From: an uncultured Fibrobacteraceae bacterium | Lineage (GTDB): Bacteria; Krumholzibacteriota; Krumholzibacteriia; LZORAL124-64-63 | Assembly: GCA_964436825.1 (NCBI GenBank) | Contig: CAYTEO010000001.1 | Coordinates: 9,035 to 73,034, forward strand | Reading direction: 5' to 3' | Length of the DNA stretch: 64,000 bases | Shown here: positions 37,706 through 56,542 of the stretch, piece after piece | Layout: each line of letters starts with the position of its first letter | Position numbering within the stretch: the first letter of the stretch is position 1 | Notes under the pieces: model-generated | Seen by the model: the letters and a program-made list of their open reading frames with translations, nothing else | Told to the model about the DNA's origin: nothing | The model's database searches: none | Program-made: the position numbers and the translations under genes

Positions 37706-37721
37706 CGTCCCTGGAACTCAC

Positions 37722-37790
37722 TTTCACCACAAATCACCATAAATCACCACTCGATGCCGCGACAATACACCGCTCCCCCATGGGTGTCAA
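37722..37790 (-). promoter_or_regulatory. dcw promoter (TTGACA-17 nt-TATTGT) followed by three direct GGTGA repeats at 10-bp phasing (MraZ-box-like operator).
   Basis: Minus-strand sequence: TTGACAcccatgggggagcggtgTATTGTcgcggcatcgagtGGTGAtttatGGTGAtttgtGGTGAaagtgag, followed by the mraZ ATG. Confidence 0.45.
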
Positions 37791-37888
37791 CCCCCGAAAG
37801 CGATTTTTTTCGGGAGGGGGCAGACCACTGGCCATCAGCGTCAACCGATGGTCTTACAATGCGTTACGAGATCCGCAGGAAGTCGGGA

Positions 37889-39187
37889 TCAGCCGCGGGG
37901 GCGGCGGAGTGCTGCCGGCAGGAGGATCCCCGACCAGGGGAGCCCGCTGGCATGACGGAACCGGACCAGCATGACGGCGGCGCCGACGGAATAGGCGATC
38001 GTCGAGGCCCAGGCGGCACCGACCGCCCCGTGGGAGGGGATGAGGCAGAGGCCGGCGGCCAGGTTGACGGCCAGGGTCGCCAGGCTGGCCTGGGTGTTCC
38101 AGCCCGGACGGCCGCGGCCGATGAAATCGGCCGCCAGGACCGATCCCGCCGCGAAGACGACGATCCCCGGCAACAGGGCCCGCAGGGCGACCCCGGCACC
38201 GGCGTAGTCGGGGCCGAACAGGCGCGGGACGACCGCCGGCGCCAGCAGGAACAGGGGAACCGCCGCCAGTCCGGTCGCCCCCACGGCCAGGCGGACCGCG
38301 GCGGCCGATCGCTCGTCGCGGTCGCTCTCCGTCCCGGCCGCCGAGTAGACCAGCAGGGGCTGCAGGGCCCCCGGCAGCAACCAGAGCAATTCCCCCACGA
38401 GGACGGCCACCGAGTAGACTCCCACCACACCGGCCGGGTGGAAGGCGGCGACCACCGCCAGGTCGATGCGCAGGTGGAGCAGGGAGACGACCGCCGAGAG
38501 CTGTCCGAACCGGCCCGACCGCCAGAGGCGAACGATCACCTCGCGCAGGGCCGGCCGGTCCGGCTCCCCCGCCCCCTCGCCACCCTCCCGCAGGGCACGG
38601 GTGCCGAGAACGCTCAGGGCGACCGCGGCCGCCAGCTGGCTGCCGGCGAGGGCGACCAGGACGGCCCCCAGGGAGAGCCTTCCGGCCGCCAGCAGACCAC
38701 CCGCCAGCAGCAACCAGAACAGGGCCCGCAGGGCGCCCACCAGGGGCGGCTGGAAGATCCTGCCCGCGGCCGTCAGGTCGTAGGTGAAGACATCGCTGGC
38801 GATCAGGGCCGCCAGCAGCAGGACGGTCGGCAGGACGACGGTCCAGGTCCCGAGCTCGGCCAGCGGCCCGGCCAGGGCGGGCCAGGCCGGCAGCAGGAAC
38901 CGGCAGGCGGGCAGGGCGAGCACCATCACGCCGGCGATCCAGGCGATCTGGGCGGACAGGATGCTTCGCGCCGGCAGCGTTCCGCGACGCAACAGGGGCA
39001 CGGCGGCCAGCCCGAGCCCCCCGTTCAGCAGCGCCGCACCGGCGGTGGCCGCCAGGACGAGCAGGCTGTAGTGCCCCTGCCCCGCCGGACCCAGTGCCTT
39101 CGCCACGAGCCACCCGGCCACCGCCGCGGCCCCGGCCTGGACGAGCCTGGCGGCAAGGATCACCCCGCCCTGGCGGGCGAGCCTCAC
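37889..39187 (-). CDS. wzx: Polysaccharide/O-antigen flippase (Wzx, MOP superfamily).
   Basis: About 12-14 TM helices with a Wzx-like length. The likely GTG start overlaps the upstream FemAB-like stop (GTGA). Confidence 0.65.
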   Translation of the reverse strand: MRLARQGGVILAARLVQAGAAAVAGWLVAKALGPAGQGHYSLLVLAATAGAALLNGGLGLAAVPLLRRGTLPARSILSAQIAWIAGVMVLALPACRFLLPAWPALAGPLAELGTWTVVLPTVLLLAALIASDVFTYDLTAAGRIFQPPLVGALRALFWLLLAGGLLAAGRLSLGAVLVALAGSQLAAAVALSVLGTRALREGGEGAGEPDRPALREVIVRLWRSGRFGQLSAVVSLLHLRIDLAVVAAFHPAGVVGVYSVAVLVGELLWLLPGALQPLLVYSAAGTESDRDERSAAAVRLAVGATGLAAVPLFLLAPAVVPRLFGPDYAGAGVALRALLPGIVVFAAGSVLAADFIGRGRPGWNTQASLATLAVNLAAGLCLIPSHGAVGAAWASTIAYSVGAAVMLVRFRHASGLPWSGILLPAALRRPRG

Positions 39188-40212
39188 CGGCCTCTCCCCC
39201 GCCAGGCACGCGACCAGCGCACCGGGAACCATTCGCGGCGCCAGAGGCCGCGCATCACCTCCTGCGCCCCGAGCAACCGCTTGAAGTTGGCCACACCCCG
39301 CTGGCCGCCGTGGCCGCCCAGGTCGAGCCAGCGCGCCCCGCGGGCGCAGGCCTCCTGCAGGTCGCCCCAGACCAGGAGTGTCGCGGGAAACAGCTCCTCG
39401 CGTCCGGGCAGGGTGGCACCCAGCCAGGCCGTCACCGTCTCCCCCTCGTGCAGCAGGAGGTGACCGCCCAGGAACTCGTCACCGTGCCGGACGACCGTGC
39501 AGAAGACACGGCCGCCGGCGGCTGCCAGCAGGTCGGCCAGCAGCGCCAGCGGCGGTGGCGTGATCCCCCAGCGCCGGGCCGAGAGGGCGTAGACCGCCAG
39601 GAACGGTTCCGCCACGGCGGGATCGGTGGTCGTCTCCAGGCGGCAGCCCCGTCGCAGGGAACGGTTCCGCTCGTTGCGGCGGTTCTTGCGCAGCTGTTCC
39701 CGCTCGACGGCCTCCAGGCCGGGAGCCAGGTCGAAGACGGCGGCCGGGACCGTCTCGCGGCGCCAGCCCTCCGCCCGGAGATGGCCGGCCAGCGCACCGT
39801 CCCACGGCGGCGGCAGGGAGAGGGAGGCGCTCACCCTGCGGACACCCCTGCCCACCAGCCGGGCCCAGCCCACCGCGCAGGCGGCCACGACCTCTTCGCG
39901 CCGCCGCGCCGGGAGTCCCGCCACGAGCAGCGGCGCTCCGGAGAGGCCCTCGTGCTGCCCCTGGACGACCTCCAGGGGGCCCCGGCGGCGGACGATCCCG
40001 ATCATCCCGGCCAGGGGACGCTCCCCCTCGCTGACCAGCAGCCAGAGGGGACGCCGCCGCGGCAGGTGCCGGCAGAGGGTCGTCGCCCAGACGGGATCGG
40101 CATACAGGGACGGGTGCTCGGCGTCGGCGAGCAGGCGCTCCCACGCCCGCGGCGGGGAAGGCCCCTCGACCAGCGTCACCGACAGTTCCCCCAGCTCCAG
40201 GCGGTCGGGCAT
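39184..40212 (-). CDS. FemAB-like / GNAT-fold acyltransferase (BioF2/CelD-like).
   Basis: 342 aa. Fold-level resemblance to FemAB/GNAT acyltransferases of exopolysaccharide loci. GAGGGGGA RBS. Functional call is tentative. Confidence 0.45.
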   Translation of the reverse strand: MPDRLELGELSVTLVEGPSPPRAWERLLADAEHPSLYADPVWATTLCRHLPRRRPLWLLVSEGERPLAGMIGIVRRRGPLEVVQGQHEGLSGAPLLVAGLPARRREEVVAACAVGWARLVGRGVRRVSASLSLPPPWDGALAGHLRAEGWRRETVPAAVFDLAPGLEAVEREQLRKNRRNERNRSLRRGCRLETTTDPAVAEPFLAVYALSARRWGITPPPLALLADLLAAAGGRVFCTVVRHGDEFLGGHLLLHEGETVTAWLGATLPGREELFPATLLVWGDLQEACARGARWLDLGGHGGQRGVANFKRLLGAQEVMRGLWRREWFPVRWSRAWRGRGR

Positions 40213-40224
40213 GGTGCGTCCCCC

Positions 40225-42630
40225 TCAGCGGACCAGGGAGACCTGGCGGACGACCACGGCGCCTTCCCGGGCGATCCTGACCAGGTAGACCCCCGGCGCG
40301 GCCGGATCCCCGGCCAGGTTCCGGCCGTCCCAGAACGGCTCGTCGTTGGCCACGTGGTCGTTGCGGTAGACGACCTGCCCCTCCAGGTCGTAGATCACGA
40401 CGGCGACACCGCCGGTGATCGCGAGGGATCCCCACTGGACCGGCGCGACGACCCCTCCCACCCGCAGACCGGCATGTCGGCCGGGCCGGAAGGGATTGGG
40501 GTAGAGACGGACCGACGCCAGTGCCGAGCCTTCCTCCATGGCGGCGGTAACGGTCACCAGGACGGCGCCGTTCTCCCCGCTGACCAGGATCCGGCTGCCG
40601 TCGGGGGAGACGGCCGTCTCCCGGAACTTGCCCGGCGGCAGGCCGGCGATGATCGTCGGCGAGTAGAGCACGCCGAGGCCGGCGCGGAAGTAGTCGCCGA
40701 CCGACGTGTAGGGAACGATCGTCGTCGTCTCGCTCCCCTCGTCGACCCGCTCGATCCCCAGGTCGTGGCAGATCCAGGCGCTGCCGGTCCCGTCGACACA
40801 GACGTCCGACACCCCTTCCTGCATCAGGCCGGGCATGGCCGGATCCCGCTTGGCGTGGTACTCGCCCAGCATCTCGATCCCCACGCTGCCGGCGCCGAAG
40901 GAGAGGACACGGAAGTGGGCCAGTCCCGACCCGCCCGCCGCCCAGACGGTCCCGTCGTCGGCGACGGCCAGGGCCCGCGTGCCCGCGAAGCTGTAGAACG
41001 AGCCGGCCGGTGCCGCGTCCAGCCGCGCCCACTGGTCGTCCCCCGTCTCCAGCCAGGTGAGATCGTCCTCCGCGCCGCCGGCCAGGCCGTTGGGGTCCCA
41101 GAAGGCCACGCCCACGTTCTCGACGGCGAAGGCGATCCGGTCGGGCCGCACGACGACGGCGTCACGCACCGTCCCCCCGCCCAGGCCCGCGGCGTCGGTG
41201 GGCAGGTGGAGCCAGGCGCCGGGATCGTGGCCGCGGTCGGGATCGACCAGGACGTGGACCCCGCTGACGTCGCTGCACATCAGGACCGGCCCCGCCGGAT
41301 GGACCTGCAGGGCGACGATCCGATCATCCGGCAGGCCGGAGTTGGTGCGATCCAGGTGGACGAAGCGATCCGACCGGGGATCGAAGTGGATGACACCGCC
41401 GCTCTGGAACTGGCAGAACCAGACGTCCCCGTCGGGGCCGGCCGCGACCGAGAGGATCGGGCCGTCGTCGTCGAACAGGCCGGCGGAGTCGTTGTCCGCG
41501 CTGGCCAGGCGGGTCACCTGCTGCCAGGTATCGCCGTCGCCCCAGGCGATCCCCTCGGCCTGGCGCCCCCCCAGCCAGAGGGTCCCGTCGGAACCGACGG
41601 CCGCACCGTCGCTGTTGACGAAGAAGGGATCGTCGGTCAGGTACTGTGACCACTGGTCCCCGCTGCGACCGGCCACCCACGCGCGCGCCGCGTGCATGTT
41701 GTCGTCGGTGACGGGGGTGGTCCCCCCGACCCAGAGACGGCTGCCGGAGACCAGGGCGTGGGCGCCGTCGCGGGGCAGCGTGACCGGCTGCCAGGCCGCA
41801 CCGTCCCAGCGCCACAGGAGGAGGTCGGCGGCGCCGGCGGCGGCCAGGCACCAGAGGGTGTCGTCCTGGACGGCAAGGGCCGCCGCGGCCCGCCCCAGTG
41901 CCCCCACCGGGACCCAGTCGGCGTCGTCGGGAGCGCGCCGGTAGACGCCGGTGTCGGCGGCCGCCCAGACGGTGTCGGCCACGGCCAGCAGGTCACCGAC
42001 GTTGGTCCCGGCCAGCGACCCGCTCCAGTCCGTCAGCAGGTTGTCGCGCAGCAGGGAGACGCCGGCGTCGGTGCCGATGACCAGGTCGTCCCCGCGCAGG
42101 GCCAGGGCGGTGATCACGTCGCTGACCAGCCCCGGATCCTCGGTGGTGGTGTAGGTCCCGCCCGGCAGGCCGTTGCTGACGAGACCGAACCCGGCCCCGT
42201 CGGTCCCGTACCAGACGCGCTCCGTCTCACCGCGCACGGTCCCGGTGACGGCCGTCACGGCCAGGTCGGCGATGTTCGTCACCTGGCGGAAGACGGGACC
42301 GTCGGCGGCGAGCGTCACCCTGGTCAGGCCGCCGTCGCGTGTCGCCACCCAGAGGTTCGCCCCCGTCCAGGCCAGGTCCGCGATCCGCTGCCCCGACAGC
42401 CCGTCCCCCGTCGTCCAGCGCCGGACCGGGGCGAGATCGCCTGTCGCCAGGACGACGATCCCGCCGTCGGCGAGGCCGCCGTACAGCTCGCCCGAGACCT
42501 CGACCAGCGCGACGCAATCGCGGGCCCCGGGCAGGACGCGGAGGTCCACCGCGCCACGGGCCGGCAGCTGGAGCAGAAAGACCAGGGCGATCGCCAGGCC
42601 CAGCGGCGGGGCGATGCAGCGTCTTCTCAT
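40225..42630 (-). CDS. Secreted beta-propeller (two-component-regulator-propeller / Y_Y_Y-like) protein with a T9SS-type C-terminal sorting domain.
   Basis: Signal peptide MRRRCIAPPLGLAIALVFLLQLPARG. Many W/G-rich blade repeats. The C-terminal about 80 aa (LYPNPFRPG...VVIYDLEGQVV...GVYLVRI) match the Por/T9SS CTD pattern. ATGA overlap with the upstream GT2. Confidence 0.65.
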   Translation of the reverse strand: MRRRCIAPPLGLAIALVFLLQLPARGAVDLRVLPGARDCVALVEVSGELYGGLADGGIVVLATGDLAPVRRWTTGDGLSGQRIADLAWTGANLWVATRDGGLTRVTLAADGPVFRQVTNIADLAVTAVTGTVRGETERVWYGTDGAGFGLVSNGLPGGTYTTTEDPGLVSDVITALALRGDDLVIGTDAGVSLLRDNLLTDWSGSLAGTNVGDLLAVADTVWAAADTGVYRRAPDDADWVPVGALGRAAAALAVQDDTLWCLAAAGAADLLLWRWDGAAWQPVTLPRDGAHALVSGSRLWVGGTTPVTDDNMHAARAWVAGRSGDQWSQYLTDDPFFVNSDGAAVGSDGTLWLGGRQAEGIAWGDGDTWQQVTRLASADNDSAGLFDDDGPILSVAAGPDGDVWFCQFQSGGVIHFDPRSDRFVHLDRTNSGLPDDRIVALQVHPAGPVLMCSDVSGVHVLVDPDRGHDPGAWLHLPTDAAGLGGGTVRDAVVVRPDRIAFAVENVGVAFWDPNGLAGGAEDDLTWLETGDDQWARLDAAPAGSFYSFAGTRALAVADDGTVWAAGGSGLAHFRVLSFGAGSVGIEMLGEYHAKRDPAMPGLMQEGVSDVCVDGTGSAWICHDLGIERVDEGSETTTIVPYTSVGDYFRAGLGVLYSPTIIAGLPPGKFRETAVSPDGSRILVSGENGAVLVTVTAAMEEGSALASVRLYPNPFRPGRHAGLRVGGVVAPVQWGSLAITGGVAVVIYDLEGQVVYRNDHVANDEPFWDGRNLAGDPAAPGVYLVRIAREGAVVVRQVSLVR

Positions 42631-44648
42631 GGGGCTCTCCTGTTCTCAGGGGCAGTCGGGTTGATGCTAACGCGACCGCCGGGCGTCGTCCAGAGCCGGC
42701 GCCAGCGCTCGCCGCGCGTGGTGCCGGCCCAGGGACCGGTCAGACCGGGGCGACCGGGGGTGAGGCACCAGCTCTCCCCCGCCGCGACCGGTTCCTCCCC
42801 TGCCGACAGGGGCATGTCGCTCCAGAGGGAGAGCGCCCCCCGACGCAGCGCCGCCAGCAGGACGGGCTGCCGCCAGAGGGATCGCGGCCGGCCGTCGGCA
42901 TCCACGTGGACCGCCACCTGGCTTCCCTGGCCGGTCAGCGGCAGCACGACGACACGATCGTCGCGCGACCGACGGTTCACCAGCCGGCCCAGCATGCCGG
43001 CCGGCCAGAGCAGGACCCCCGCCGACAGGTCCGCCAGCCGCCTGCCGAGACCGGCCAGGGGATGTCCCTCGCCGGGGTCCAGGACCAGGCTCGGGAGCGG
43101 ACCGAAGGCCTCCCCCCTCCCGCCGGCGACGGCCAGGGAGGCGGCAGGGACCTGCCAGCGCAGGCGGACCCGGCGCCGACGCAGTTCCCGCAGCAGGCGC
43201 AGCTCGTCCGGATCGCCCGCCGGCCAGGCGAAGAAGACGACCTGCCCGATGCGGTAACGATCGACGACGGTCCCCATCTCCGCGCGCACTCCCAGCTGCG
43301 GCAGGGAGACCTTGCCGGCGACGATCCGGTCGTCGCCGAGATAACCCACCAGGTCCAGGCCCAGGCGGCGGGGATCCCCGACGGCGGCCAGCCAGTCGGT
43401 GAGCCCTGCCGGGGGATCGACCAGGAGGGTCCGTTCCAGGGAGAGGTGTCCCTTCGTCATGCGGCGACGCAACCGTTCCCAGAGCGTGCCGCCGAGACCG
43501 AGGGACAGCACCAGCAGGGGGAAGAACAACAGCAGGACGGCCCGGCTGTAGACGACCTGGTGGCTCAGATAGGTGCTGGCCAGCAGCAGCAGCGCGACCG
43601 TCCCCGCCTGCTGCAGGTCCTCCCGCCAGCCGGGGCGCCAGCGGCCGGTGCGCCGCCGGTAGCGGCCCCGCAGGACGAAGGTGACCGTCGCCAGCAGCGC
43701 GGCGTAGAGCTGCAGGCCGTGGTACTCCGACCACGGGAACAGCGGCTCCGCGAACAGCGGCTGCAGCAGGCGGCGCACCAGGTAGGCCCCCCCGAAGGCC
43801 AGGTTGACGGCCGCCATGTCCAAGAGCCAGGCCAGCAGGGTCCCCAGGGGGCCGGACCAGCGCTTCAGGGCGTAGACCAGCAGTCCCCATTTCTCGTAGA
43901 AGGAGATGAGGCTGGCCAGGTGGAGCCAGAAGCCGCGCCGGGTGATCCCGCCTGCGCTGGCGCGCCGGTGCCTGTGGACGAACCGGGCCACCGGCGTGTA
44001 ACGCACCTCGTAGCCGGCCTGCCACATCCGGTAGCACCAGTCCACGTCCTCGAAGTAGAGGAAGAAGCGCTCGTCCATGGGACCGACCCGCCGCAGCGCC
44101 TCGCGGCGCACCAGCAGGCAGCCGCCCAGGACCCAGTCGACGGGCCGGGCCGACAGGTGGTCGAAGTCCCGCATCAGGTGCAGTTGCACCGCCCTGGCCC
44201 GCGGGAAGAGCCTTCCGAGGATGGTCCGGCGCAGGACCAGCGTGGTGAAGGTATAGAAACGGCGGCACGACTCCTGGATCGAGCCGTCGGGGTTGAGCAG
44301 CTGGGGACCGATGATCCCCGCCCGGGGATGGGCGTCGGCGTCGGCCAGCAGGGCGTCGATCGCACCGGGCAGGACGACGATGTCGGGATTGAGGATCAGC
44401 GTGTAGTCGGCCTCGCAGAGGGCGAGCCCCGCGTTGACGCCGGCCGCGTAGCCCACGTTGCGGCTCTGGAAGAGCCAGTCGACGCCGGGGAACCGTTCCC
44501 GGACCGCCGGCAGGCCAGGGTCGTCGGAGGCGTTGTCGACGACGATGATGCGGTACTCGCAGGCGGGCGGGTTCTCCTGCAGCGACCCGAGGCAGCGGGC
44601 CAGATCGTCGCTCGTGTTGTAGTGGACGATGACGATCGAGAGCTTCAC
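42627..44648 (-). CDS. GT2-family glycosyltransferase fused to a polytopic membrane/Rossmann-like C-terminal region.
   Basis: N-terminal SIVIVHYNTSDDL...VVDNASDD...DVDWCYRMWQAGY GT2 motifs (DxD). Four or more TM helices and a C-terminal region with a weak PGLTGPW resemblance to sugar-phosphotransferases. GTG start. Confidence 0.65.
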   Translation of the reverse strand: MKLSIVIVHYNTSDDLARCLGSLQENPPACEYRIIVVDNASDDPGLPAVRERFPGVDWLFQSRNVGYAAGVNAGLALCEADYTLILNPDIVVLPGAIDALLADADAHPRAGIIGPQLLNPDGSIQESCRRFYTFTTLVLRRTILGRLFPRARAVQLHLMRDFDHLSARPVDWVLGGCLLVRREALRRVGPMDERFFLYFEDVDWCYRMWQAGYEVRYTPVARFVHRHRRASAGGITRRGFWLHLASLISFYEKWGLLVYALKRWSGPLGTLLAWLLDMAAVNLAFGGAYLVRRLLQPLFAEPLFPWSEYHGLQLYAALLATVTFVLRGRYRRRTGRWRPGWREDLQQAGTVALLLLASTYLSHQVVYSRAVLLLFFPLLVLSLGLGGTLWERLRRRMTKGHLSLERTLLVDPPAGLTDWLAAVGDPRRLGLDLVGYLGDDRIVAGKVSLPQLGVRAEMGTVVDRYRIGQVVFFAWPAGDPDELRLLRELRRRRVRLRWQVPAASLAVAGGRGEAFGPLPSLVLDPGEGHPLAGLGRRLADLSAGVLLWPAGMLGRLVNRRSRDDRVVVLPLTGQGSQVAVHVDADGRPRSLWRQPVLLAALRRGALSLWSDMPLSAGEEPVAAGESWCLTPGRPGLTGPWAGTTRGERWRRLWTTPGGRVSINPTAPENRRAP

Positions 44649-44658
44649 TCCGCCTCCC

Positions 44659-47840: not shown

Positions 47841-47916
47841 GGTCCCTCCCGGTCCTCGCCCCCGGGACGACCGTCCGGGGAACTTCCAGTGTAACCGACG
47901 GTTGCCTCGGCGTCCA

Positions 47917-48849: not shown

Positions 48850-49813
48850 CGCCGGTCCGGTCCGCGGGGGCGATGATCTCCCGCACCATGTACTCGCTCT
48901 CGGGGTGTCGTCCCGCCACGACGAGCTCGGCCAGCAGGCCGAGGCTGATGAACTGGACGGCCATCAGCACGAGGGTCACCCCCAGCAGCATCAGCGGGCG
49001 GATCCGCAGCCCGTGGCCGGTCAGCCACCAGCCGAGGAACCAGGCCATGATCCCGCCGCCGACCGCCAGCAGGGCCACGCCGATGCGGCCGAACAGGTGC
49101 AGGGGCGAGGTGCCGCGGGAGGTCAGGAAGAGCATGGTCAGCAGATCCAGGAACCCGTTGAGGAAGCGGGCCAGACCGTACTTCGTCGTCCCGTACTTGC
49201 GGGGGTGGTGGCGGACGGGCAGCTCGGTGACGCGGAAACCGCCCCGGTGGACCAGGGCGGGGATGAACCTGTGCAGTTCCCCGTAGAGGCGGACGGCGGC
49301 CAGTGCCTCGCGGCGGTAGGCCTTCAGGCCGCAGTTGAAGTCGTGGAGCCGCAGGCCGACGGCCCGGCTGGTCACCAGGTTGAACAGGCGCGAGGTCTGG
49401 TTCTTGACGAAGCCGTCCTTGCGATCCTGCTTCCAGCCGGAGACCAGGTCGTACCCCTCCTCCAGCTTGGCCAGCAGCCGCGGGATCTCGGCCGGGTCGT
49501 CCTGCAGGTCGGCGTCCATGGTCACGACGTAGCGTCCCTGCGCGCGCTGGAAGCCGGCCGACAGGGCCGCCGCCTTGCCGAAATTCCGGGAGAAGCGGAT
49601 CCCCCGCACGGCCGGGTACCGGTCGGCGAGGCTGCGCAGGACCGCGGGCGTGTCGTCGCGGCTGCCGTCGTCGATGATCCAGACCTCGTGGTTCAACCCC
49701 AGCGGAGCGACCGCCGCCTCGATCCTCTCGACGAGTTCGGGCAGGGATTCCGCCTCGTTGTAGGCCGGGATGACGATCGACAGATCGCACCCGGCTGATC
49801 GCTCACGCCCCAT
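48839..49813 (-). CDS. Polyprenyl-phosphate glycosyltransferase (ArnC/GtrB-like GT2) with two C-terminal TM helices.
   Basis: LSIVIPAYNEAESL...IIDDGSRDDT...MDADLQDDP plus a C-terminal TM pair, as in ArnC/GtrB. Start at MGRERSAG. The upstream part of the ORF is an artifact. Confidence 0.75.
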   Translation of the reverse strand: MGRERSAGCDLSIVIPAYNEAESLPELVERIEAAVAPLGLNHEVWIIDDGSRDDTPAVLRSLADRYPAVRGIRFSRNFGKAAALSAGFQRAQGRYVVTMDADLQDDPAEIPRLLAKLEEGYDLVSGWKQDRKDGFVKNQTSRLFNLVTSRAVGLRLHDFNCGLKAYRREALAAVRLYGELHRFIPALVHRGGFRVTELPVRHHPRKYGTTKYGLARFLNGFLDLLTMLFLTSRGTSPLHLFGRIGVALLAVGGGIMAWFLGWWLTGHGLRIRPLMLLGVTLVLMAVQFISLGLLAELVVAGRHPESEYMVREIIAPADRTGDAD

Positions 49814-50846
49814 GACTGCGCTGTCTCCTCTGGACGGCCCACCGAACCTCCTCCCGCAGCCCGTCGCGGAAGGGGGTCGTGGCCCTGTACCCCAGTTCGG
49901 CTGCGATGCGGGAGGGGTCGGCCCAGGTATCGTGGACGTCGCCCTTCTCCCGCTCGCGGTACTCGATCCGCACCGTGACCTCCGGGGCCGAAACGGCCAG
50001 CAGGTCCTGCAGGATCTCCAGCGCCTCGGCCAGGGAGATCCGCGCCCCGCCGCCGACGTTGTAGACGGCCCAGCGGCGCGGTGTGGCCACGGCCAGCAGG
50101 TTGGCCCGCACGGCGTCGGCCACGAAGGTGAAGTCGCGCGTCTGGCTCCCGTCGCCGTAGACGATCCACGGCCGCCCGTCCAGGGCCGCGTCGATGAACT
50201 TGCGGAACGCCATGTCCGGCCGTTGCCGCGGCCCGTAGACGGTGAAGTAGCGCAGGCTCGTCGTCGGCACGCCGAAGTTCCCGCTGTACAGGACACAGAG
50301 ATGCTCCGCCGCCAGCTTGGTCACCCCGTAGGGCGAGAACGGCTGCGGCAGGGCGGTCTCGGCCACGGGCAGGTCCTCGCGGTCGCCGTAGACGGAGCTG
50401 GAGCTGGAGTAGACGAACCGCTCCAGGGTCGCGGCGACCTCGGGATGGCGGCACGCCTCCAGCAGGTGCTGGGTCGCCAGCACGTTCCGGTCGGTGTATT
50501 CCCGGAAGTGCCCTCCCCAGCTGGCCCGCACGCCGGCCTGGGCGGCCAGGTGGAAGACGAAGCGCCGGCCCCGCAGCAGCTCGACGGCGTCGAGATCCAG
50601 CAGGTCGCGCTCCAGGAAGGTGAAGCCGTCGCGCCCGGCCAGGGCCGCCAGGTTCTCCCGCTTCAGTCCCGGATCGTAGTAGTCGGTCAGGCAGTCGACT
50701 CCGGTGACCTGGCAGCCGCGATCGAGGAGGGCCTCGGCCAGGTGGCTGCCGATGAAGCCGGCACAACCGGTCACGACGACCGGCGTCCCCGGTGCCAGGA
50801 GCTCGGCCAGCCGCTGCTGCACCGCCGAACGCGCGTCATCGTTCAT
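49803..50846 (-). CDS. NAD-dependent sugar-nucleotide epimerase/dehydratase (SDR family).
   Basis: VVVTGCAGFIGSHL Rossmann motif and a YxxxK catalytic pair (YGVTK). 347 aa. Confidence 0.8.
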   Translation of the reverse strand: MNDDARSAVQQRLAELLAPGTPVVVTGCAGFIGSHLAEALLDRGCQVTGVDCLTDYYDPGLKRENLAALAGRDGFTFLERDLLDLDAVELLRGRRFVFHLAAQAGVRASWGGHFREYTDRNVLATQHLLEACRHPEVAATLERFVYSSSSSVYGDREDLPVAETALPQPFSPYGVTKLAAEHLCVLYSGNFGVPTTSLRYFTVYGPRQRPDMAFRKFIDAALDGRPWIVYGDGSQTRDFTFVADAVRANLLAVATPRRWAVYNVGGGARISLAEALEILQDLLAVSAPEVTVRIEYREREKGDVHDTWADPSRIAAELGYRATTPFRDGLREEVRWAVQRRQRSHGA

Positions 50847-53559
50847 GCTGCCCGTTCCCTCCCGTGGTCCCCGGGTCGGAGCCGCCGTCGCCCTGCTCCC
50901 GCTCCATCTCGGCGAGGGCCCGTTCCATGGCGGGGTCCTCCTGCCCGAAACGCTCCCGCCACGCCTCCGCGATGGCGCGACACCCCTGCAGATCGGCACG
51001 GTAGCGGGCCAGCTTGAACAGCATCCGGTACGGGAGCGGATCTCCGGGGTCCGCCGCCCGGCGGCGCTGCAGCCAAGCCTCGGCCAGGGAGTCGGCGCCC
51101 GCCGTGTAGAGGGTCTCGACGACCTGGCCGACGGTCCGTTCCTCGTCCAGCTGCGGGATCCGCCCGTGGATGGCGTCGAGATGGGCCAGGGCGGCAGCCG
51201 GCCGGTGGCGCTCGATCAGCAGCAGGGGATAGATGTCGGCGACCATGGGGAAGGTCGGGTCGAAGCTGCGGGCCATCTCGAAGGCCGCCTCGGCCTTGCC
51301 CAGGACGTGCTGGTAGAGGGAGTCGTCCTCGACGGGGATGGTCCGGGCCTGCTGCAGCATGGCGTAGCCGGCGCGGATCATGCCGGCCGGGTAGTTGCCC
51401 ATGAGGTTGCTGGTCGTCGTGTCGAAGAAGACGTCCCGGCGGCGCTCGCCGTCGTCGGTGTAGAGGCCCTCGAACTCCCAGGTGCGACCCTCGCCGGCGA
51501 GCTGGGCGGGATCGCCCGCCAGCAGCGGCGCGGGATCCAGGCTGTTGAGCTCGGCGAAGCGGCGGCGACGGCGGTCGCTGTCCCCGGTCAGGACCGCCCG
51601 GTAGTCGTAGACGCCGTACGCGTTGGCCAGCAGGCGCTCGGGATCGACGGTAGGGTTGCCGTCCTGCGACGCCCTGCCGGTGAAGCGGTAGGCCAGTCCC
51701 TCCATCCGCAGCATCCCGTAGTAGCGCTTCATGTTCTCCTGCGGGATCGTCACGGCGAAGTAGACCGGTCGCCGCCCGGCGTTCTGCAGGATGTTGTGGA
51801 CCACGTAGTCCTTGACCATCAGGTACTCGCGCCTGCCGGTCTCGGGGTCCTCGTAGATGACCGGCCGCAGTTCCTCCAGCTCGCGGTCGCTGTAGGAGAT
51901 CTTCACGGTGGGCGGGTAGCGCTTGAGCTGCTTGTTGTACCAGGCCAGGTTGACCAGGCTCAGGTTGACGATGGAGACGTCCTTGCGGAAGCCCTCCACC
52001 TGCTGGAGGTACCAGACCGGGAAGGTGTCGTTGTCGCCGTTGGTGAACAGGATGGCGTCGTGGTCCAGGCCGGCCAGCATGTTCCAGGCGTACTCCCGCG
52101 GCGCCCAGTTCAGGTGGCGGTCGTGCTCGAACCACTTGGTGTGGCCGGGCACGAGCAGCGGCAGCGCGGCGACCAGCACCAGGGCGCCGGCGACGACCTT
52201 GACGACCGGGCCGATGCGCACCGCCGCGGCCCCGCTCCGCGCGACCGCATCGCGACCCTTCTCCAGCAGGGGACCGGCCAGGTACCGCAGCAGGGCGGCG
52301 GCGCCGATCCCGATGAAGACGGCGAAGTAGAGGAAGCCGGCGAAGAAGAAGTAGTCGCGGTCACGGACCTCGTGGTCGGTGAAGTTCAGGTAGACGTTCA
52401 GGATGTCGGCGTTGATCAGGTAGTTGACCAGGATCAGCCACGCCAGAGGCCGGGCGCGCAGCAGGGCGTGGACGGCCCCCAGCAGTCCCAGGAAGACCGG
52501 CACCAGGAAGTTCAGCCAGCGGGCACCGCCGCCCAGGCGCGGGTCCAGGAAGGTGAACTGCTGGACGAGGTAGTGGTAGTAGTAGCCGATCTGCCAGAGG
52601 AAGTCGGCCTTGCGCTGGAAGGGGTTCATGGGCGGATACTGCTCCCGCCGCAGGACCTCCATGAGGGTGGCGAAGTTGTCCGGCTGCGACTGGTTGATGG
52701 CCGGGTCCAGCCCGGCGCGGATCAGCAGGTAGATGTGGACCGACAGGCCGAGCAGGAACAGCCCGCCCCCGATCAGGACCAGCGGCTTGCCGCCGTGGGC
52801 CCGCACCAGGGCCCAGGCCGCCAGGGCGACCACGGCTCCGACGAGGACGAAGTCGTCCTTGATCATGGTCGAGACCATGAACAGGCCGAGCACGGCGCCC
52901 AGGCCGAGCAGGTCGAGGACCTCGATCCGGCGCTCCCTGGCCAGCAGGACCAGGACGAAGATCCCGGGGAAGACGAGCAGCGTTCCCAGGTGGAACCCGA
53001 CGCCGAGGCCCAGCAGGTAGATCATCAGCAGCAGCAGCCGGTTGCTCGCCTCCCGGCGGCGCACGTCGTACCACTTCAGGGCCAGCCAGGTCAGGAAGGT
53101 GATCATGAACGCCGCCAGGCCGTAGACCTCGGCCTCGATGGCGTTGTTCCAGAAGGTGTGGCTGAAGGTCAGCATCAGGGCGCCGACCAGCCCCCCGGCA
53201 TGGGGCAGCCACCCCGCGTCGGGATCGGCCCGGCGGGCCAGCCGGACGATGACCAGGTAGGTGAACATGACCGCCAGGGCGCTGAAGAACCCGGACATGG
53301 CGTTGACGGCCCTGGCCGTGCTGCCCAGCACCGGTGCCAGCAGCAGGTCGAAGCAGCGGCCCACCAGGACGTACAGGGGCGTGCCGGGCTGGTGGGGGAT
53401 CCCCAGGATGTGGCTGGTGGTGATGAACTCGCCGCAGTCCCAGAAACTGAGCGTCGGCGCCATCGTCAGCAGGTAGACGATCCAGGCGAGCAGGAAGACG
53501 CCGCCGGCCAGCCGGGGCGTCCACCGATCCTGTCGAGTCGTCGTGGGCATGCTCTTCAT
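50836..53559 (-). CDS. DUF2723-family (TMEM260-like) GT-C membrane glycosyltransferase with a C-terminal TPR-like soluble domain.
   Basis: N-terminal PTLSFWDCGEFITTSHILGIPHQPGTPLYVLVGR signature of DUF2723. About 11 TM helices. A C-terminal 300 aa helical domain. 907 aa. Confidence 0.6.
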   Translation of the reverse strand: MKSMPTTTRQDRWTPRLAGGVFLLAWIVYLLTMAPTLSFWDCGEFITTSHILGIPHQPGTPLYVLVGRCFDLLLAPVLGSTARAVNAMSGFFSALAVMFTYLVIVRLARRADPDAGWLPHAGGLVGALMLTFSHTFWNNAIEAEVYGLAAFMITFLTWLALKWYDVRRREASNRLLLLMIYLLGLGVGFHLGTLLVFPGIFVLVLLARERRIEVLDLLGLGAVLGLFMVSTMIKDDFVLVGAVVALAAWALVRAHGGKPLVLIGGGLFLLGLSVHIYLLIRAGLDPAINQSQPDNFATLMEVLRREQYPPMNPFQRKADFLWQIGYYYHYLVQQFTFLDPRLGGGARWLNFLVPVFLGLLGAVHALLRARPLAWLILVNYLINADILNVYLNFTDHEVRDRDYFFFAGFLYFAVFIGIGAAALLRYLAGPLLEKGRDAVARSGAAAVRIGPVVKVVAGALVLVAALPLLVPGHTKWFEHDRHLNWAPREYAWNMLAGLDHDAILFTNGDNDTFPVWYLQQVEGFRKDVSIVNLSLVNLAWYNKQLKRYPPTVKISYSDRELEELRPVIYEDPETGRREYLMVKDYVVHNILQNAGRRPVYFAVTIPQENMKRYYGMLRMEGLAYRFTGRASQDGNPTVDPERLLANAYGVYDYRAVLTGDSDRRRRRFAELNSLDPAPLLAGDPAQLAGEGRTWEFEGLYTDDGERRRDVFFDTTTSNLMGNYPAGMIRAGYAMLQQARTIPVEDDSLYQHVLGKAEAAFEMARSFDPTFPMVADIYPLLLIERHRPAAALAHLDAIHGRIPQLDEERTVGQVVETLYTAGADSLAEAWLQRRRAADPGDPLPYRMLFKLARYRADLQGCRAIAEAWRERFGQEDPAMERALAEMEREQGDGGSDPGTTGGNGQHER

Positions 53560-53638
53560 CCTCGTCGTTCCGGTTGCCGTACAGCCATGGCCGCGGCGAA
53601 CCTAGCACATGGTGAGCAGGAGCAACAAGAACGGGTCG

Positions 53639-54625
53639 TCATCGGTTCCCGTCCCGCCCGGTCCGGGCGGTTTGCACCTCCCCCAGCAGGAACAGGACGC
53701 CACCGGCCAGGCTGACGATGAGCTGGATGGCGAAGGCCACCAGCTCGATGGCCACCGCGGAGCCGCCGTCGGCCACGATCCCCGCGGCGACGAACAGGTC
53801 GGCAGCCGCCGTCTCCCGCAAACCGATCCCGTTGATGCTCACCGGCAGGGTGATCAGGATCCCCAGCACCGGCACCAGGGCCAGCAGCAGCAGGGCGCGC
53901 TGCCCGTCCAGATCGAATCCCAGCGCCCGGGCCGCCAGCAGGTGGGTCGCGACCCGCAGCAGCTGCACCAGCAGCGCGAACAGGAACAGGGCGGCCAGCC
54001 GTCCCCAGCGGCGGCCGTGGACCCGCAGGGCGTCGTCGATCCGGACGAACCGGTCCCGCCATCCCGGCCACGGCAGCATCCGGACGAGCCGCCCGACCGG
54101 GCCCGACAGGGCCGGGGTCAGCAGCAGGGGCAGCAGCAGCAGGATCCCGCCCAGGACCACCGCGAGCGGCATGACCGGCAGGGCGGCCGCGCCGCTGCGG
54201 GCCCCCCAGGCGACGGCGATCAGCCCCAGCATGGCCAGCGCCCCCAGTCCCAGCAGCCGGTCGACCAGGGTCGCCCCGAAGACGACCGCCGTGCGGCCCT
54301 CGCGCCGTCCCAGGTCCAGGACCTTGACGGCGTCGCCGCCCACGTTGGCCGGCAGGAAGTTGTTGAAGAAGAGGCCCACCAGGTAGAGGCGCCACAGCGC
54401 GGCGCGGGGAGCGTGGATCCCGGCCCCTGCCAGCAGCCAGGTCCACTGCTGGGCGCCGCCCAGGACGGAGACGGCGAAGACGCCGACGGCCGCCAGCAGC
54501 CAGCCCGCCTGGAGGCGGCCGGACAGCTCGGCGAAGGTCGCCGCCAGGTCGTACCGCCGCAGCAGCAGCGCGACCAGCAGCGCGCTGACCCCCGCGCGCA
54601 GCAACCAGCTCCCGCGAAAGTTCAT
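53639..54625 (-). CDS. UPF0104 / lysylphosphatidylglycerol-synthase-TM-like 'flippase-like' membrane protein.
   Basis: Start MNFRGSWLL. Eight TM helices and the FFNNFLPANVGGD motif characteristic of the family. ATGA overlap with the upstream GT4. Confidence 0.55.
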   Translation of the reverse strand: MNFRGSWLLRAGVSALLVALLLRRYDLAATFAELSGRLQAGWLLAAVGVFAVSVLGGAQQWTWLLAGAGIHAPRAALWRLYLVGLFFNNFLPANVGGDAVKVLDLGRREGRTAVVFGATLVDRLLGLGALAMLGLIAVAWGARSGAAALPVMPLAVVLGGILLLLPLLLTPALSGPVGRLVRMLPWPGWRDRFVRIDDALRVHGRRWGRLAALFLFALLVQLLRVATHLLAARALGFDLDGQRALLLLALVPVLGILITLPVSINGIGLRETAAADLFVAAGIVADGGSAVAIELVAFAIQLIVSLAGGVLFLLGEVQTARTGRDGNR

Positions 54626-55752
54626 CCGCCAACCTCCCACTCGCCGGCCACGACCTGGTCGAACAGCGCCAGCGACTCCCGCGCGCAGCGCTCCCAGCTG
54701 AAGCGCTCGGACCACCGGCGCGCCTGCCCGCTCATCCTTCGCCACCGGTCGCTGTCGCGCAGCAGCGCCAGGGCGGCCCCGGCCATCGCCTCCGGGTCTC
54801 CGTAGGGTACCAGCATGCCGGTCTCCCCGTCGCGGACCGAGTCGCGCAGGCCGGGACTGTCGGCGGCCACGGTCGGCAGGCCGCAGCAGGCCGCCTCGAT
54901 GACGGTCAATCCCCACCCCTCCTTGGGACTGGGGTTGAGGAACAGCCTGGCGCGGTGGAGGATTCCCACCAGCTCCTCCCACGGGAGATGGCCGGGGAAG
55001 ACGACCGCGTCCTGCAGGCCGAGCTTCCGGACGAGCTTTTCCAGGCGGGGGCGGTCGGGGCCGCGGCCCATGACCAGCAGCCGCGCGCCGGGTATCTCGC
55101 GCCGGACGAGCGCGAAGGCCCGGATCGCCACATCGACGCTCTTGTAGCGCCGCAGCCGGCTCCAGGAGACCAGCAGCGGCGGCTCGTCCCGGGGCGGCGG
55201 ATCGGCCAGGCGGAAGCGGTCGTGATCCATGCCGCAGTAGACGGTCCGGATCCGCTCGGGCGGCAGGCCGCGCCGGATCAGGTCGCCCCGGGTCGAGGGG
55301 CTGATCACCTCGAAGGCCACCTTGCGGTAGACGGCCGGGATGAGCTGTTCGGCCGCCCAGACGTAGGTCCCCACCACCGGGTTGGTCTCCCGGTAGACGG
55401 TCGTGCCGAACAGGTGGGGAACGACCGCCAGCACAGGCACCCCCGCCGCGTAGAGGGGGGTGTAGAACGGGATCTTGTTGATGTCCTCGAGCAGCAGGTC
55501 GTAGCGCCGCTCCCGCAGCAGGCGCCGCACCACGCCGGGCAGGACCAGGTTGGCGACGGCCCAGTGGCCGCGGCGGTGGATCCGGATCCCGTCGATCTCG
55601 TCGCGGGCCGGCGCCCCCGCGTAGGCCGAGACGACCAGGTCCACCTCGTGGCCCGCCGCCACGGCCCCCTTGAGGATCTCGTGCAGGTGGAGCTCGGCGC
55701 CGCCGCCCAGCGGATCGCCGATGTCGCGCCAGTTGACCGCCAGGATCCGCAC
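54622..55752 (-). CDS. GT4-family (GT-B) glycosyltransferase.
   Basis: N-terminal GGAE motif and C-terminal EGWGLTVIEAACCGLPTVAADSPGLRDSV (E-x7-E) motif. Confidence 0.8.
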   Translation of the reverse strand: MRILAVNWRDIGDPLGGGAELHLHEILKGAVAAGHEVDLVVSAYAGAPARDEIDGIRIHRRGHWAVANLVLPGVVRRLLRERRYDLLLEDINKIPFYTPLYAAGVPVLAVVPHLFGTTVYRETNPVVGTYVWAAEQLIPAVYRKVAFEVISPSTRGDLIRRGLPPERIRTVYCGMDHDRFRLADPPPRDEPPLLVSWSRLRRYKSVDVAIRAFALVRREIPGARLLVMGRGPDRPRLEKLVRKLGLQDAVVFPGHLPWEELVGILHRARLFLNPSPKEGWGLTVIEAACCGLPTVAADSPGLRDSVRDGETGMLVPYGDPEAMAGAALALLRDSDRWRRMSGQARRWSERFSWERCARESLALFDQVVAGEWEVGG

Positions 55753-55756
55753 GCTG

Positions 55757-56542
55757 TCACTTCCGTTCCGGTTTGCGCACGATCACACCGATCGTCATCG
55801 TCGTGTACAGGGCCCAGCGCCGCTCGCGCCAGCGCTCCCGCAGCCGCGCCAGCAGGCGGCCCAGCGGCGGGACGGGATCGGGATACATGGGCAGCCGCAC
55901 CCCCAGCCTGGTCAGCAGGACCTTGCGCAGGGCCCGGTACCAGAGCCCGGGCACCATCCAGTCGCCGTAGGTGCGGACGACCTCGCCGCCGGCCTGGCGG
56001 CAGACCCTCTCCAGTCGACCCGGCGTGAACTGGGTCTCCCAGCCGGCGAACCAGCGTCCCGCGGCGATCAGCGCCTTCTTGCCCACCGTGTAGTAGTGGA
56101 AGGTCTGCGGCACGTCGACCAGCAGGTAGCCCCCCGGCTTGAGCACGCGCAGGTCCTCCCGCAGCAGCGGCAGCGGGTCGCGGAAGTGCTCCAGCAGCCC
56201 CTGGTGGAAGACGATGTCGAAGGTGTCGTCGGGGAACGGCTTGTGCAACGCGTCGCCCCCGACCGGGGCCACCGCCACACCCGCCGCGTCCGCGGCCTGC
56301 AGCGTCAGGGACAGGGAACCGGGGACGTAGTCGAGGGTCGCCACCCGCGCACCGGCGCTGGCCAGGGCGACGGCGTCACGGCCGCTGCCGGCCCCCACCT
56401 CCAGGACCCGCCGGCCGGCGGGATCGCCCAGGGCGAACAGCTCCCTGACGATCCGCCCGTCGTTGCCGTAGACGTCGTCCAGGTTCAGGGCGTCGGCCTG
56501 CTCCCAGAACCGCTGCCAGTGCTCCCGGGTGGCCCGTTTCAC
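55757..56542 (-). CDS. Class I SAM-dependent methyltransferase.
   Basis: VLEVGAGSGRDAVALA motif I and LKPGGYLLV post-II motif. Confidence 0.75.
   Translation of the reverse strand: MKRATREHWQRFWEQADALNLDDVYGNDGRIVRELFALGDPAGRRVLEVGAGSGRDAVALASAGARVATLDYVPGSLSLTLQAADAAGVAVAPVGGDALHKPFPDDTFDIVFHQGLLEHFRDPLPLLREDLRVLKPGGYLLVDVPQTFHYYTVGKKALIAAGRWFAGWETQFTPGRLERVCRQAGGEVVRTYGDWMVPGLWYRALRKVLLTRLGVRLPMYPDPVPPLGRLLARLRERWRERRWALYTTMTIGVIVRKPERK

Follow-up and report, generated by a model that had tools for sequence, protein, structure and literature searches.

The 64,000-nucleotide (nt) stretch of contig CAYTEO010000001.1 analyzed here (hereafter the window) carries, between nusB and mraZ, a glycan locus of 13 co-directional genes, which we designate A to M (Table 1). 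All readings given below are inferred from sequence and predicted structure, in uncultured organisms. The 13 minus-strand genes agree across a frame plot of third-position G+C content (GC3), scans with Pfam and NCBIfam, and the Joint Genome Institute (JGI) calls on an identical metagenome contig. Because the window is G+C-rich (69–76%), spurious long open reading frames (ORFs) are common, and frames were therefore picked by third-position G+C; start codons were set by the frame switch, a Shine-Dalgarno-like sequence, and agreement with relatives. Two ORFs in the wrong GC3 frame and with no Pfam hit, at 53556–54632 (overlapping the C region) and 44645–45640, were rejected. An earlier note, made from the letters alone, had placed the block correctly in position and strand and had counted 16 genes. 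That figure is wrong because the independent calls of JGI give the same 13 genes, and the list in the note itself has 13 items. The family assignments that it made for all 13 genes held in the Pfam/NCBIfam and structure comparisons, and the hidden Markov model (HMM) check supported its glycosyltransferase (GT) family assignments (GT2 and GT-C).

Table 1. The glycan locus, its genes, and other features of the window. E-values are given after the matching family or structure; aa, amino acids.
Feature	Assignment	Length (aa)	Coordinates	Strand	Evidence or remark
Glycan locus	13 co-directional genes, A to M, between nusB and mraZ		37889–56542	minus	
A	Class I S-adenosylmethionine (SAM)-dependent methyltransferase	261	55757–56542	minus	Methyltransf_11 7.4e-20
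B	GT4 (GT-B fold) Leloir glycosyltransferase	376	54622–55752	minus	Glycos_transf_1 1.8e-38, Glyco_transf_4 3.2e-15
C	UPF0104/MprF-type flippase-like membrane protein	328	53639–54625	minus	LPG_synthase_TM (PF03706) 1.1e-30
D	DUF2723/TMEM260-type GT-C	907	50836–53559	minus	TMEM260-like (PF11028) 5.9e-51
E	UDP-glucuronate 4-epimerase-type short-chain dehydrogenase/reductase (SDR)	347	49803–50846	minus	Best PDB hits 6ZL6 2.2e-75, MoeE5 6KV9 1.6e-60
F	ArnC/GtrB-type GT2	324	48839–49813	minus	ArnC structures 4.8e-56, GtrB 5EKP 1e-34
G	Soluble GT2 Leloir glycosyltransferase	310	47917–48849	minus	Glycos_transf_2 1e-18, Glyco_tranf_2_3 2.3e-18
H	GT-C fold membrane glycosyltransferase, distantly YfhO-like	825	45363–47840	minus	
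I	Short dolichyl-phosphate-mannose (Dol-P-Man)-synthase-like GT2	235	44659–45366	minus	Pyrococcus furiosus Dol-P-Man synthase 5MLZ 2.7e-26
J	N-terminal GT2 and WbaP-like membrane scaffold	673	42627–44648	minus	GT2 6.8e-19
J, C-terminal half	Degenerate phosphoglycosyltransferase-like domain		42627–43800	minus	
K	Secreted PorZ-like protein	801	40225–42630	minus	AlphaFold2 (AF2) model and Foldseek to PDB
L	Fem-type (Acetyltransf_6) aminoacyl transferase	342	39184–40212	minus	PF13480 1.6e-20
M	MOP-superfamily flippase, Wzx-like	432	37889–39187	minus	Start overlaps L stop by 4 nt
nusB	Last gene of rib operon		56539–57009	minus	Pfam NusB 6.8e-30, JGI call; stop overlaps A start by 4 nt
Flavin mononucleotide (FMN) riboswitch	Upstream of ribD		60653–60779	minus	97.5 bits
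Promoter	Sigma-70-like, TTGACA-17-TATTGT		37790–37762	minus	In M/mraZ gap; downstream boundary of locus
mraZ	Downstream flank of locus		37244–37705		
STAS-domain gene	Anti-sigma-antagonist type		36769–37167	minus	Between mraZ and rsmH
FtsI-type transpeptidase	dcw cluster		33304–35460	minus	C-terminal PASTA domain 2.7e-11
BacA/UppP	Undecaprenyl-diphosphatase		12343–13158	minus	
SpoIIE-type phosphatase	PP2C with PDZ domain		408–3242		

Overlaps of 4 nt join nusB/A, B/C, H/I, J/K, and L/M, overlaps of 11 nt join D/E, E/F, and F/G, and gaps of 4–12 nt separate A/B, I/J, and K/L; larger gaps lie at C/D (79 nt), G/H (76 nt), and M/mraZ (183 nt). The 11-nt overlaps thus fall at three successive junctions and are each of exactly that length, whereas the remaining coupled junctions overlap by 4 nt. 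The block continues out of nusB, as the earlier note had it, but does not run straight into mraZ as it also claimed, the 183-nt gap being occupied by a promoter. This is the sole promoter-like site in 37100–57050, and no credible terminator was found in the same interval. The upstream flank consists of the FMN riboswitch followed by ribD-ribE-ribBA-ribH-nusB, and the downstream flank of mraZ, rsmH, ftsI, mraY, murD, murG, murC, ftsA, and ftsZ. Read-through from the riboswitch-led rib operon into the locus is possible, because the two are co-directional, nusB and A overlap by 4 nt, and no promoter-like site lies between them. The locus is probably one transcription unit that continues from nusB.

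Three of the gene products, E, F, and I, are predicted to provide sugar donors. E keeps S/T126, S127, S128, Y149, K153, T178, and R185 in the alignment to 6ZL6, and its motif LRYFTVYGPRQRPDMAF is identical to that of 6ZL6. 6ZL6 is the Bacillus cereus enzyme, in keeping with residue numbers that match those of PMC12338863. Arg185 holds the carboxylate of UDP-galacturonic acid (UDP-GalA) (PMC12338863). At the enzyme-family level, E is predicted to convert UDP-glucuronic acid (UDP-GlcA) to UDP-GalA. F aligns with ArnC along the full length (about residues 10–319) and has two C-terminal transmembrane (TM) helices (residues 244–262 and 276–294). It falls under the ArnC equivalog (PRK10714; 205.4 bits vs 529) and under PgfS, its second-best NCBIfam model (143.6 bits, cut-off 500). 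Judged by these alignments, F works like ArnC/GtrB, yet is not ArnC; at the enzyme-family level, it would load a sugar onto undecaprenyl phosphate, and it is a candidate undecaprenyl-phosphate uronic-acid synthase. Residues 1–227 of I align with residues 23–244 of 5MLZ, and I has no TM segment or membrane anchor. The NCBIfam matches of I to PpgS, AglJ, and Dol-P-hexose transferase all fall under cut-off. I is the best-conserved gene of the locus (57–82% identity in all groups), and its product is predicted, at the enzyme-family level, to make a second polyprenyl-phosphate hexose. The two polyprenyl-phosphate-sugar synthases proposed by the earlier note are supported by the structural relatives of F and I (Table 1).

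The transferases that would use such donors are the GT-C proteins D and H. D, which passes PF11028 (173.2 bits vs a 24.2-bit cut-off), starts with a multi-TM module and ends in an extracytoplasmic domain of ~430 residues. Its sole sequence relative in the PDB is human TMEM260 (9RQL, 6.4e-21). The phmmer alignment to 9RQL revealed that (i) D41 aligns with TMEM260 D52; (ii) D509 aligns with TMEM260 D441; and (iii) residues 473–553 match the start of the TMEM260 luminal domain, with nothing matched past residue 553. In TMEM260, D52 is essential and D441 lines the catalytic pocket (PMC10214176; bioRxiv 10.64898/2026.03.17.711096). At the enzyme-family level, D is predicted to be a GT-C transferase at the periplasmic face. 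In the literature searched, the term DUF2723 occurs in the TMEM260 study alone, and no bacterial DUF2723 protein is characterized there. One Krumholzibacteriota metagenome-assembled genome (MAG) carries two tandem copies of gene D (L028:477–5130).

H, for which JGI picks an 808-residue start at 47789, has a TM bundle at its N-terminus, followed by an extracytoplasmic domain of ~280 residues and a last TM helix; hydropathy and the AF2 model concur in helices up to residue ~496, a mixed domain at residues 503–766, and a helix at residues 769–791. The multi-TM GT-C module is recognizable through structure comparison. An invariant Asp follows TM1 in 52/52 relatives (D26 in the 808-residue numbering, D43 in the 825-residue numbering). 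Against the Pfam YfhO family (PF09586), H scores 22.6 bits, below the 28.5-bit cut-off, and the last 43 residues alone match; YfhO is nevertheless matched by all 52 relatives (best 3.7e-9) and nothing else is matched consistently. H is likewise predicted to be a GT-C transferase at the periplasmic face, at the enzyme-family level.

Among the remaining enzymes, A matches no specific NCBIfam equivalog and shows a median identity of 76% in close relatives. B has no TM segment and lies under all NCBIfam equivalog cut-offs, including that of the GlcN-PG synthase model (44 bits, cut-off 480), and G matches MftF and rhamnosyltransferase models of NCBIfam weakly. C, whose frame was chosen by GC3 and whose start overlaps the stop of B by 4 nt, has ~8 hydrophobic segments and passes PF03706 (107.6 bits vs a 33.4-bit cut-off). 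The gpgSDF system (PMC12713373) offers an analogy by which C may flip a glycolipid instead of a polyprenyl sugar. M has ~12–14 hydrophobic segments. The window protein scores 17 bits against Pfam MurJ (cut-off 27.4), and its family matches Polysacc_synt in 7/13 members (best 2.7e-8) and MurJ in 7/13 (best 5.9e-8). M as a canonical MurJ was ruled out on these scores, and M is predicted to be a MOP member at the family level. C and M are thus the two flippase candidates that the earlier note had listed. In the distant relative L049, a Polysacc_synt protein occupies the M position. In three other distant relatives, a 506-residue membrane protein with no Pfam/NCBIfam hit follows L at the expected place of M/Wzx (L041:20204–21724).

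The protein J contains an N-terminal GT2 domain followed by a region (residues 276–548) that matches positions 2–270 of TIGR03025, the membrane and linker part of large phosphoglycosyltransferases; there is no Pfam hit to Bac_transf. Distant J homologues keep the motifs GKMSIVGPYP, RPGVTGYWR, and DxxYxxNWSL, whereas the KFKTM motif is missing in 48/48 homologues and the last of the three is also lost in the clade of the window; a PglC sequence served as the reference for this motif comparison. The C-terminal half of J is a recognizable, though degenerate, phosphoglycosyltransferase domain and a candidate pseudo-enzyme scaffold on an intact GT2. Inside J, ARAGORN calls a tRNA-Ser(GCT) at 42938–43026 on the minus strand, which we rejected: Rfam finds no tRNA there, and the call is probably spurious, G+C-rich coding sequence having been mistaken for a tRNA.

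For the comparison of gene order, relatives of H were located at 401 genomic places, and 80 loci with 10-kb flanks were compared by tblastn of 18 window proteins against them. The closest loci are labelled Krumholzibacteriia and Latescibacterota, together with Fibrobacteraceae and Gemmatimonas, the latter two probably mislabelled; the more distant loci are Krumholzibacteriota, Eisenbacteria, and Marinimicrobia. Gene order is kept in about 60 MAGs, and all tblastn matches are colinear. Where H is at least 45% identical (26 loci), B, D, E, and F all lie upstream of it in 20/20 loci and I, J, K, and L all lie downstream in 18/19; at 32–45% identity (38 loci), the counts are 14/18 and 17/20, respectively. 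The genes are thus strongly syntenic in related genomes, which the earlier note had named as the neighborhood check. A strain-variable O-antigen or capsule island was ruled out, order and content being conserved down to ~30% identity. Because synteny is kept in close and distant loci alike, the product of the locus appears to be a single conserved one and not an antigen that varies between strains. In Eisenbacteria, C to L are retained and mraZ comes next, and Marinimicrobia keep F, G, and H only. Since Marinimicrobia retain only these three genes, F-G-H appears to be an older core in which F is paired with H; this pairing is inferred from co-occurrence, and I would pair with D by elimination only. 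Distant relatives have extra GT4 genes between F and G, which suggests that the Leloir part varies while the core does not.

K has a signal peptide, its AF2 model (pLDDT 91.8) shows two β-propellers and a C-terminal β-sandwich sorting domain, and K relatives carry Reg_prop repeats. The best PDB match of the model, by Foldseek, is PorZ (5M11) over the full length (6.7e-26; template modeling (TM)-scores of 0.60/0.63), whereas Bacteroides two-component sensor domains reach a TM-score of only ~0.33. A profile of 52 K relatives matches 5M11 (7.7e-17) colinearly to the C-terminus. All 52 family members match NCBIfam NF052228 (type IX secretion system (T9SS) anionic lipopolysaccharide (A-LPS) delivery protein PorZ; best 3.4e-15), far below cut-off. 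With TIGR04183, the model of the T9SS type A sorting domain, K of the window reaches 20.2 bits (cut-off 23), and 35/52 relatives match (best 1.1e-8); against FlgD_ig, K scores 23.3 (cut-off 27). Because PorZ is the best structural match of K and yet the NCBIfam scores lie far below cut-off, K is, as modeled, PorZ-like in architecture and not a demonstrable orthologue. The earlier note had read K as a T9SS β-propeller cargo protein with a C-terminal sorting domain; the propeller and, in the AF2 model, a C-terminal sorting domain stand, but the protein is PorZ-like rather than ordinary cargo. The 95-residue sorting domain alone as a query found nothing, and an HMM of this domain, run on every ORF in the window and in 81 loci, matched K orthologues only, so it is silent on how widespread the signal is.

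L passes PF13480 (74.2 bits vs a 22-bit cut-off). A profile of 35 L relatives matches 9WQY, an aminoacyl-tRNA-dependent peptide synthase (1.7e-21), Weissella FemX (1NE9, 2.8e-10), and FmhB (6SNR, 2e-5), and all significant PDB relatives of L are aminoacyl-tRNA-dependent aminoacyl transferases. At the enzyme-family level, L is predicted to be a Fem-type member of this group. A UDP-GlcNAc 4,6-dehydratase of the PseB/FnlA/PglF type lies between K and L in 29 of the 37 loci that have both, accompanied by a PseC/ArnB-type 4-aminotransferase in 14 of the 37; L always comes directly next after those genes, and several loci have a Wzx-type gene after L. Among the 37 loci, both genes are absent solely from the immediate sub-clade of the window and from one Eisenbacteria locus. 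The K-L gap of the window (40212–40225), set beside the corresponding intervals L021:17788–20431 and L047:17662–20324, indicates that the dehydratase and aminotransferase were lost or moved in this sub-clade. Because the K-L interval of most relatives holds the dehydratase and often the aminotransferase, the ancestral module is predicted to be PorZ-like protein, dehydratase, aminotransferase, Fem-type transferase, and flippase.

In the GtrA/GtrB/GtrC, ArnC/ArnEF/ArnT, and CsbB/GtcA/YfhO systems, a GT2 with C-terminal TM helices loads the carrier, a flippase follows, and a GT-C acts outside. The streptococcal Pgf system (PgfS, PgfE, PgfM1, and PgfM2) likewise joins an epimerase to the GT2 and has two YfhO-type GT-Cs; the predicted activities of E, F, and H reproduce this set (bioRxiv 10.1101/2024.05.05.592596; PMC8035078). 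Comparison with these systems revealed that (i) the locus does not have a GtrA or ArnE/F-type flippase, and UPF0104 and MOP candidates are present instead; (ii) its sugar is probably a uronic acid; (iii) it has a second donor/GT-C pair, of Dol-P-Man-synthase and TMEM260 type; (iv) seven further genes are attached; and (v) F and H lie under the cut-offs of the PgfS, ArnC, and YfhO models. With eukaryotic DPM1/TMEM260 protein O-mannosylation, the locus shares a Dol-P-Man-synthase-like protein, I, and, in D, the GT-C module, counterparts of Asp52 and Asp441, and the beginning of the luminal domain; unlike human TMEM260, D is bacterial, 907 residues long, and, in its C-terminal domain, unmatched past residue 553. 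The B and C pair resembles gpgSDF of Pseudomonas aeruginosa and hexSDF of Clostridioides difficile, in which a GT4 is followed by a UPF0104 protein (PMC12713373), except that the locus has no deacetylase and that B, by its bit score, is not a GpgS orthologue.

The PorZ/A-LPS linking-sugar pathway of Bacteroidota T9SS (Wbp/Vim pathway, PorS/Wzx, WbaP, and VimA) resembles the locus in the PorZ architecture of K, for which PorZ is the best structural match, and in a Wzx-type flippase, Leloir glycosyltransferases, and a WbaP-like scaffold. By analogy with VimA of Porphyromonas gingivalis, L is predicted to be capable of aminoacylating the amine of a sugar (PMC7468200, PMC13086638). The likeness of L to VimA remains an analogy because the papers describe VimA merely as a "putative N-acetyltransferase". 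Methylation and a 6-deoxy amino sugar recall the linker of Prevotella intermedia (PMC11969387). By contrast, WbpA/B/D/E, VimE, VimA, WbaP, Wzy, and WaaL were not found in the locus by Pfam/NCBIfam, and L, M, and the J scaffold are functional analogues only; the aminoacyl transferase of the locus is Fem-type, and its GT-Cs have no P. gingivalis counterpart. In Bacteroidota, porZ is not known to lie inside a glycan locus. As in the bacillosamine-type PglF/PglE/PglD route, most relatives have a dehydratase and a 4-aminotransferase before an N-acyl transferase; here, a Fem-type aminoacyl transferase stands in place of the acetyltransferase, and the dehydratase and aminotransferase are missing from the window. 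The arrangement resembles a PglF/E/D-like route in which the acetyltransferase has been replaced by an aminoacyl transferase.

Stated generically, the region is very probably a conserved lipid-linked periplasmic glycosylation locus. The synthases, GT-Cs, and flippase candidates support overall the periplasmic logic put forward in the earlier note, and we found this combination described nowhere in the searched literature, as that note had also held. The best explanation of the gene content is a vertically inherited assembly line for one conserved acidic surface glycoconjugate on lipid carriers. More specifically, we tentatively propose, at a probability of about 0.42, that the product of the locus is a conserved anchor glycan, which contains uronic acid and an N-aminoacyl amino sugar and is presented by K for the attachment of type IX cargo. 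Such an A-LPS-like anchor glycan gained the most support among the three targets that had been suggested for the locus, the others being protein O-glycosylation and a novel envelope glycopolymer.

According to this proposal, B, G, and the N-terminal half of J would assemble an oligosaccharide on a lipid carrier by cytoplasmic Leloir reactions. The oligosaccharide would include a 4-amino-4,6-dideoxy-N-acetylhexosamine, whose dehydratase and aminotransferase would be encoded elsewhere in this genome or not at all; L would add an amino acid to the amino group of this sugar, and A may methylate the glycan. M would then flip the oligosaccharide over the inner membrane. In the periplasm, H would add GalA from the donor made via E and F, D would add a hexose from the donor made by I, and C would flip either the polyprenyl-phosphate sugars or a B-made glycolipid. 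K would bind the finished glycan at the cell surface, as PorZ binds A-LPS, and would offer the free α-amine of the aminoacyl sugar to a PorU-type sortase, tying type IX cargo to the glycan. The three characterized type IX linking sugars all bear an N-linked amino acid (seryl, glycyl, or alanyl), the amine of which forms an amide with the C-terminus of the cargo (PMC7468200, PMC11969387). The amino acid is N-seryl in P. gingivalis and N-glycyl in Tannerella forsythia, both via VimA (PMC7468200); P. intermedia, which does without VimA, uses an N-alanyl, partly O-methylated deoxyhexose by a pathway that the authors of that study call unknown (PMC11969387). In P. gingivalis, WbaP and three glycosyltransferases assemble the linker on undecaprenyl pyrophosphate (PMC13086638).

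Several observations weigh against this anchor-glycan proposal. K scores 31.5 bits against the 260-bit cut-off of the PorZ equivalog (NF052228), and its sequence likeness to PorZ is confined to residues 536–801 in the profile comparison and to the C-terminal ~95 residues in the NCBIfam match. Double Reg_prop propellers are common ligand-binding modules. No PorU, PorV, PorQ, or Sov gene was found in the window or in the 10 kb past its left end, where housekeeping genes only (those for valyl-tRNA synthetase (ValRS), UvrB, and BirA) and no secretion genes are encoded; none of the papers retrieved links Krumholzibacteriota to type IX secretion or mentions this phylum, and reviews list type IX genes in several other phyla of the Fibrobacteres-Chlorobi-Bacteroidetes (FCB) superphylum (PMC11285876). 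The dehydratase and aminotransferase are absent from the 64-kb window, which makes the amino sugar no more than a candidate substrate of L here. Moreover, the A-LPS pathway of P. gingivalis has no GT-C enzyme and requires WbaP, Wzy, and WaaL (PMC13086638), and the locus, as judged by Pfam/NCBIfam and the J motifs, has no intact initiating phosphoglycosyltransferase, polymerase, or ligase. Finally, proteins are the acceptors of the only characterized relative of D and of the H relatives in streptococci (PMC10214176; bioRxiv 10.1101/2024.05.05.592596).

The strongest rival, which we nonetheless consider unlikely, is general protein O-glycosylation, in which D would O-mannosylate unfolded secreted proteins with the donor made by I, H would add a uronic acid from the F-derived donor, and B, G, and J would make an outer glycan that, once A has methylated it and M has flipped it, is ligated on, leaving K as a client or an unrelated passenger. 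D keeps both catalytic-site Asp residues of TMEM260 and the start of its luminal domain; TMEM260 itself O-mannosylates proteins, acting on peptides in extended form (PMC10214176; bioRxiv 10.64898/2026.03.17.711096), and I resembles Dol-P-Man synthase. On the side of H, the YfhO-family proteins PgtC2 and PgfM1 modify streptococcal proteins together with a GtrB/PgfS GT2 and the epimerase PgfE (bioRxiv 10.1101/2024.05.05.592596), and the second-best NCBIfam model of F is PgfS. In addition, the O-glycan core of Bacteroidota is Man-Rha-GlcA; its transferase, the core flippase, and the ligase have yet to be discovered, and methylation is frequent there (PMC12871550). This rival, however, gives the conserved K-dehydratase-aminotransferase-L arrangement no role. 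The D-S/T-x sequon of Bacteroidota is not enriched in K and H and has no conserved site there; in the K family it is in fact depleted (1.99 observed vs 4.24 expected per 1000 residues), and the AF2 model of K has no disordered Ser/Thr-rich region. Sequon enrichment has been reported mainly within Bacteroidota (PMC12871550). Somewhat less probable again is a joint reading, in which K, the dehydratase, the aminotransferase, L, and M would form an N-aminoacyl linking-sugar route, with Fem-type enzymes replacing VimA, while D and I would carry out the core O-mannosylation of a Bacteroidota-type O-glycosylation to which H adds a uronic acid.

Three further rivals each explain fewer genes. Decoration of the LPS core or lipid A of the Arn/Rgt type, in which E makes UDP-GalA, F makes undecaprenyl-phosphate-GalA, and the GT-Cs add GalA and hexose periplasmically, seems improbable to us. 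F resembles ArnC most, from end to end, E belongs by family to the UDP-GlcA 4-epimerases, and Rhizobium LpsL/RgtE/RgtA-D follow the same epimerase, ArnC-like, and GT-C logic for GalA. Yet neither GT-C matches the ArnT/PMT_2 sequence families, nine more genes go unexplained, including the Wzx-type flippase, the three Leloir glycosyltransferases, L, and K, and Pfam scans of the window found no lipid A or core genes adjacent. A glycolipid-anchored lipoglycan following lipomannan/lipoarabinomannan (LM/LAM) or lipoteichoic acid logic, with B glycosylating a glycerolipid, C flipping it, and D and H extending it outside, is very improbable. It would account for the translational coupling of B and C through their 4-nt overlap, since a GT4 with a UPF0104 protein is the documented gpgSDF/hexSDF arrangement for making and moving glycosyl-phospholipids (PMC12713373) and UPF0104 is the lipid-flippase domain of MprF (bioRxiv 10.1101/2022.03.11.483950), and I resembles polyprenyl-phosphate-mannose synthases. 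The match of B to the GlcN-PG synthase model is, however, weak (44 bits vs the 480-bit cut-off), the deacetylase or acyltransferase typical of such lipids is not in the locus, and the Wzx-type flippase and the Fem-type enzyme are left without a role. We regard as equally improbable a mosaic of unrelated modules, in which L, as a FemX-like branch-peptide transferase, and M, as a MurJ-like lipid II flippase beside the dcw cluster, would serve peptidoglycan and the other genes would belong to separate glycosylation systems. Two solved relatives of L, FemX and FmhB, do act in peptidoglycan synthesis, MurJ is matched by half of the M family, L and M lie directly before mraZ in the window, and the dcw genes that were scanned include no MurJ. 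Against this stand the position of L directly after a nucleotide-sugar dehydratase, with or without the aminotransferase, in 29/37 relatives, the sub-threshold MurJ score of M together with an equal family share matching Polysacc_synt (the family found at this place in L049), and the retention of the whole order across two candidate phyla.

Outside the conserved block, the window contains several other features (Table 1). The STAS-domain gene lies at the head of the dcw cluster, and the mraZ-STAS-rsmH arrangement is also present in the six nearest loci whose sequence extends to this point. With the SpoIIE-type phosphatase, a partner-switching module may be linked to the division genes. The FtsI-type transpeptidase ends in a PASTA domain, a domain better known from Gram-positive penicillin-binding proteins and kinases. 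The BacA/UppP gene, ~25 kb from the locus, would serve carrier-lipid recycling.

The locus is distinctive in that a TMEM260-type and a YfhO-type GT-C occur together, a phosphoglycosyltransferase fusion is degenerate, and a PorZ-like gene lies beside a Fem-type transferase. Bacterial DUF2723/TMEM260 proteins have no known function, and here one is placed in an order that is fixed across at least two candidate phyla; because a plausible donor synthase flanks D, its pairing is concretely testable. If the joint reading were true, Fem-type enzymes would be the missing amino-acid transferases in species without VimA, such as those for the N-alanyl deoxyhexose of P. intermedia, and two open questions for the FCB superphylum would be answered by one integrated pathway. 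The locus supplies candidates for the core transferase, core flippase, and ligase of Bacteroidota O-glycosylation, which are undiscovered according to a 2025 review. The PorZ-like gene in a glycan locus offers a genetic handle on type IX-type anchoring outside Bacteroidota, and the K-L neighborhood points to an enzyme family that may install the N-linked amino acid of linking sugars.

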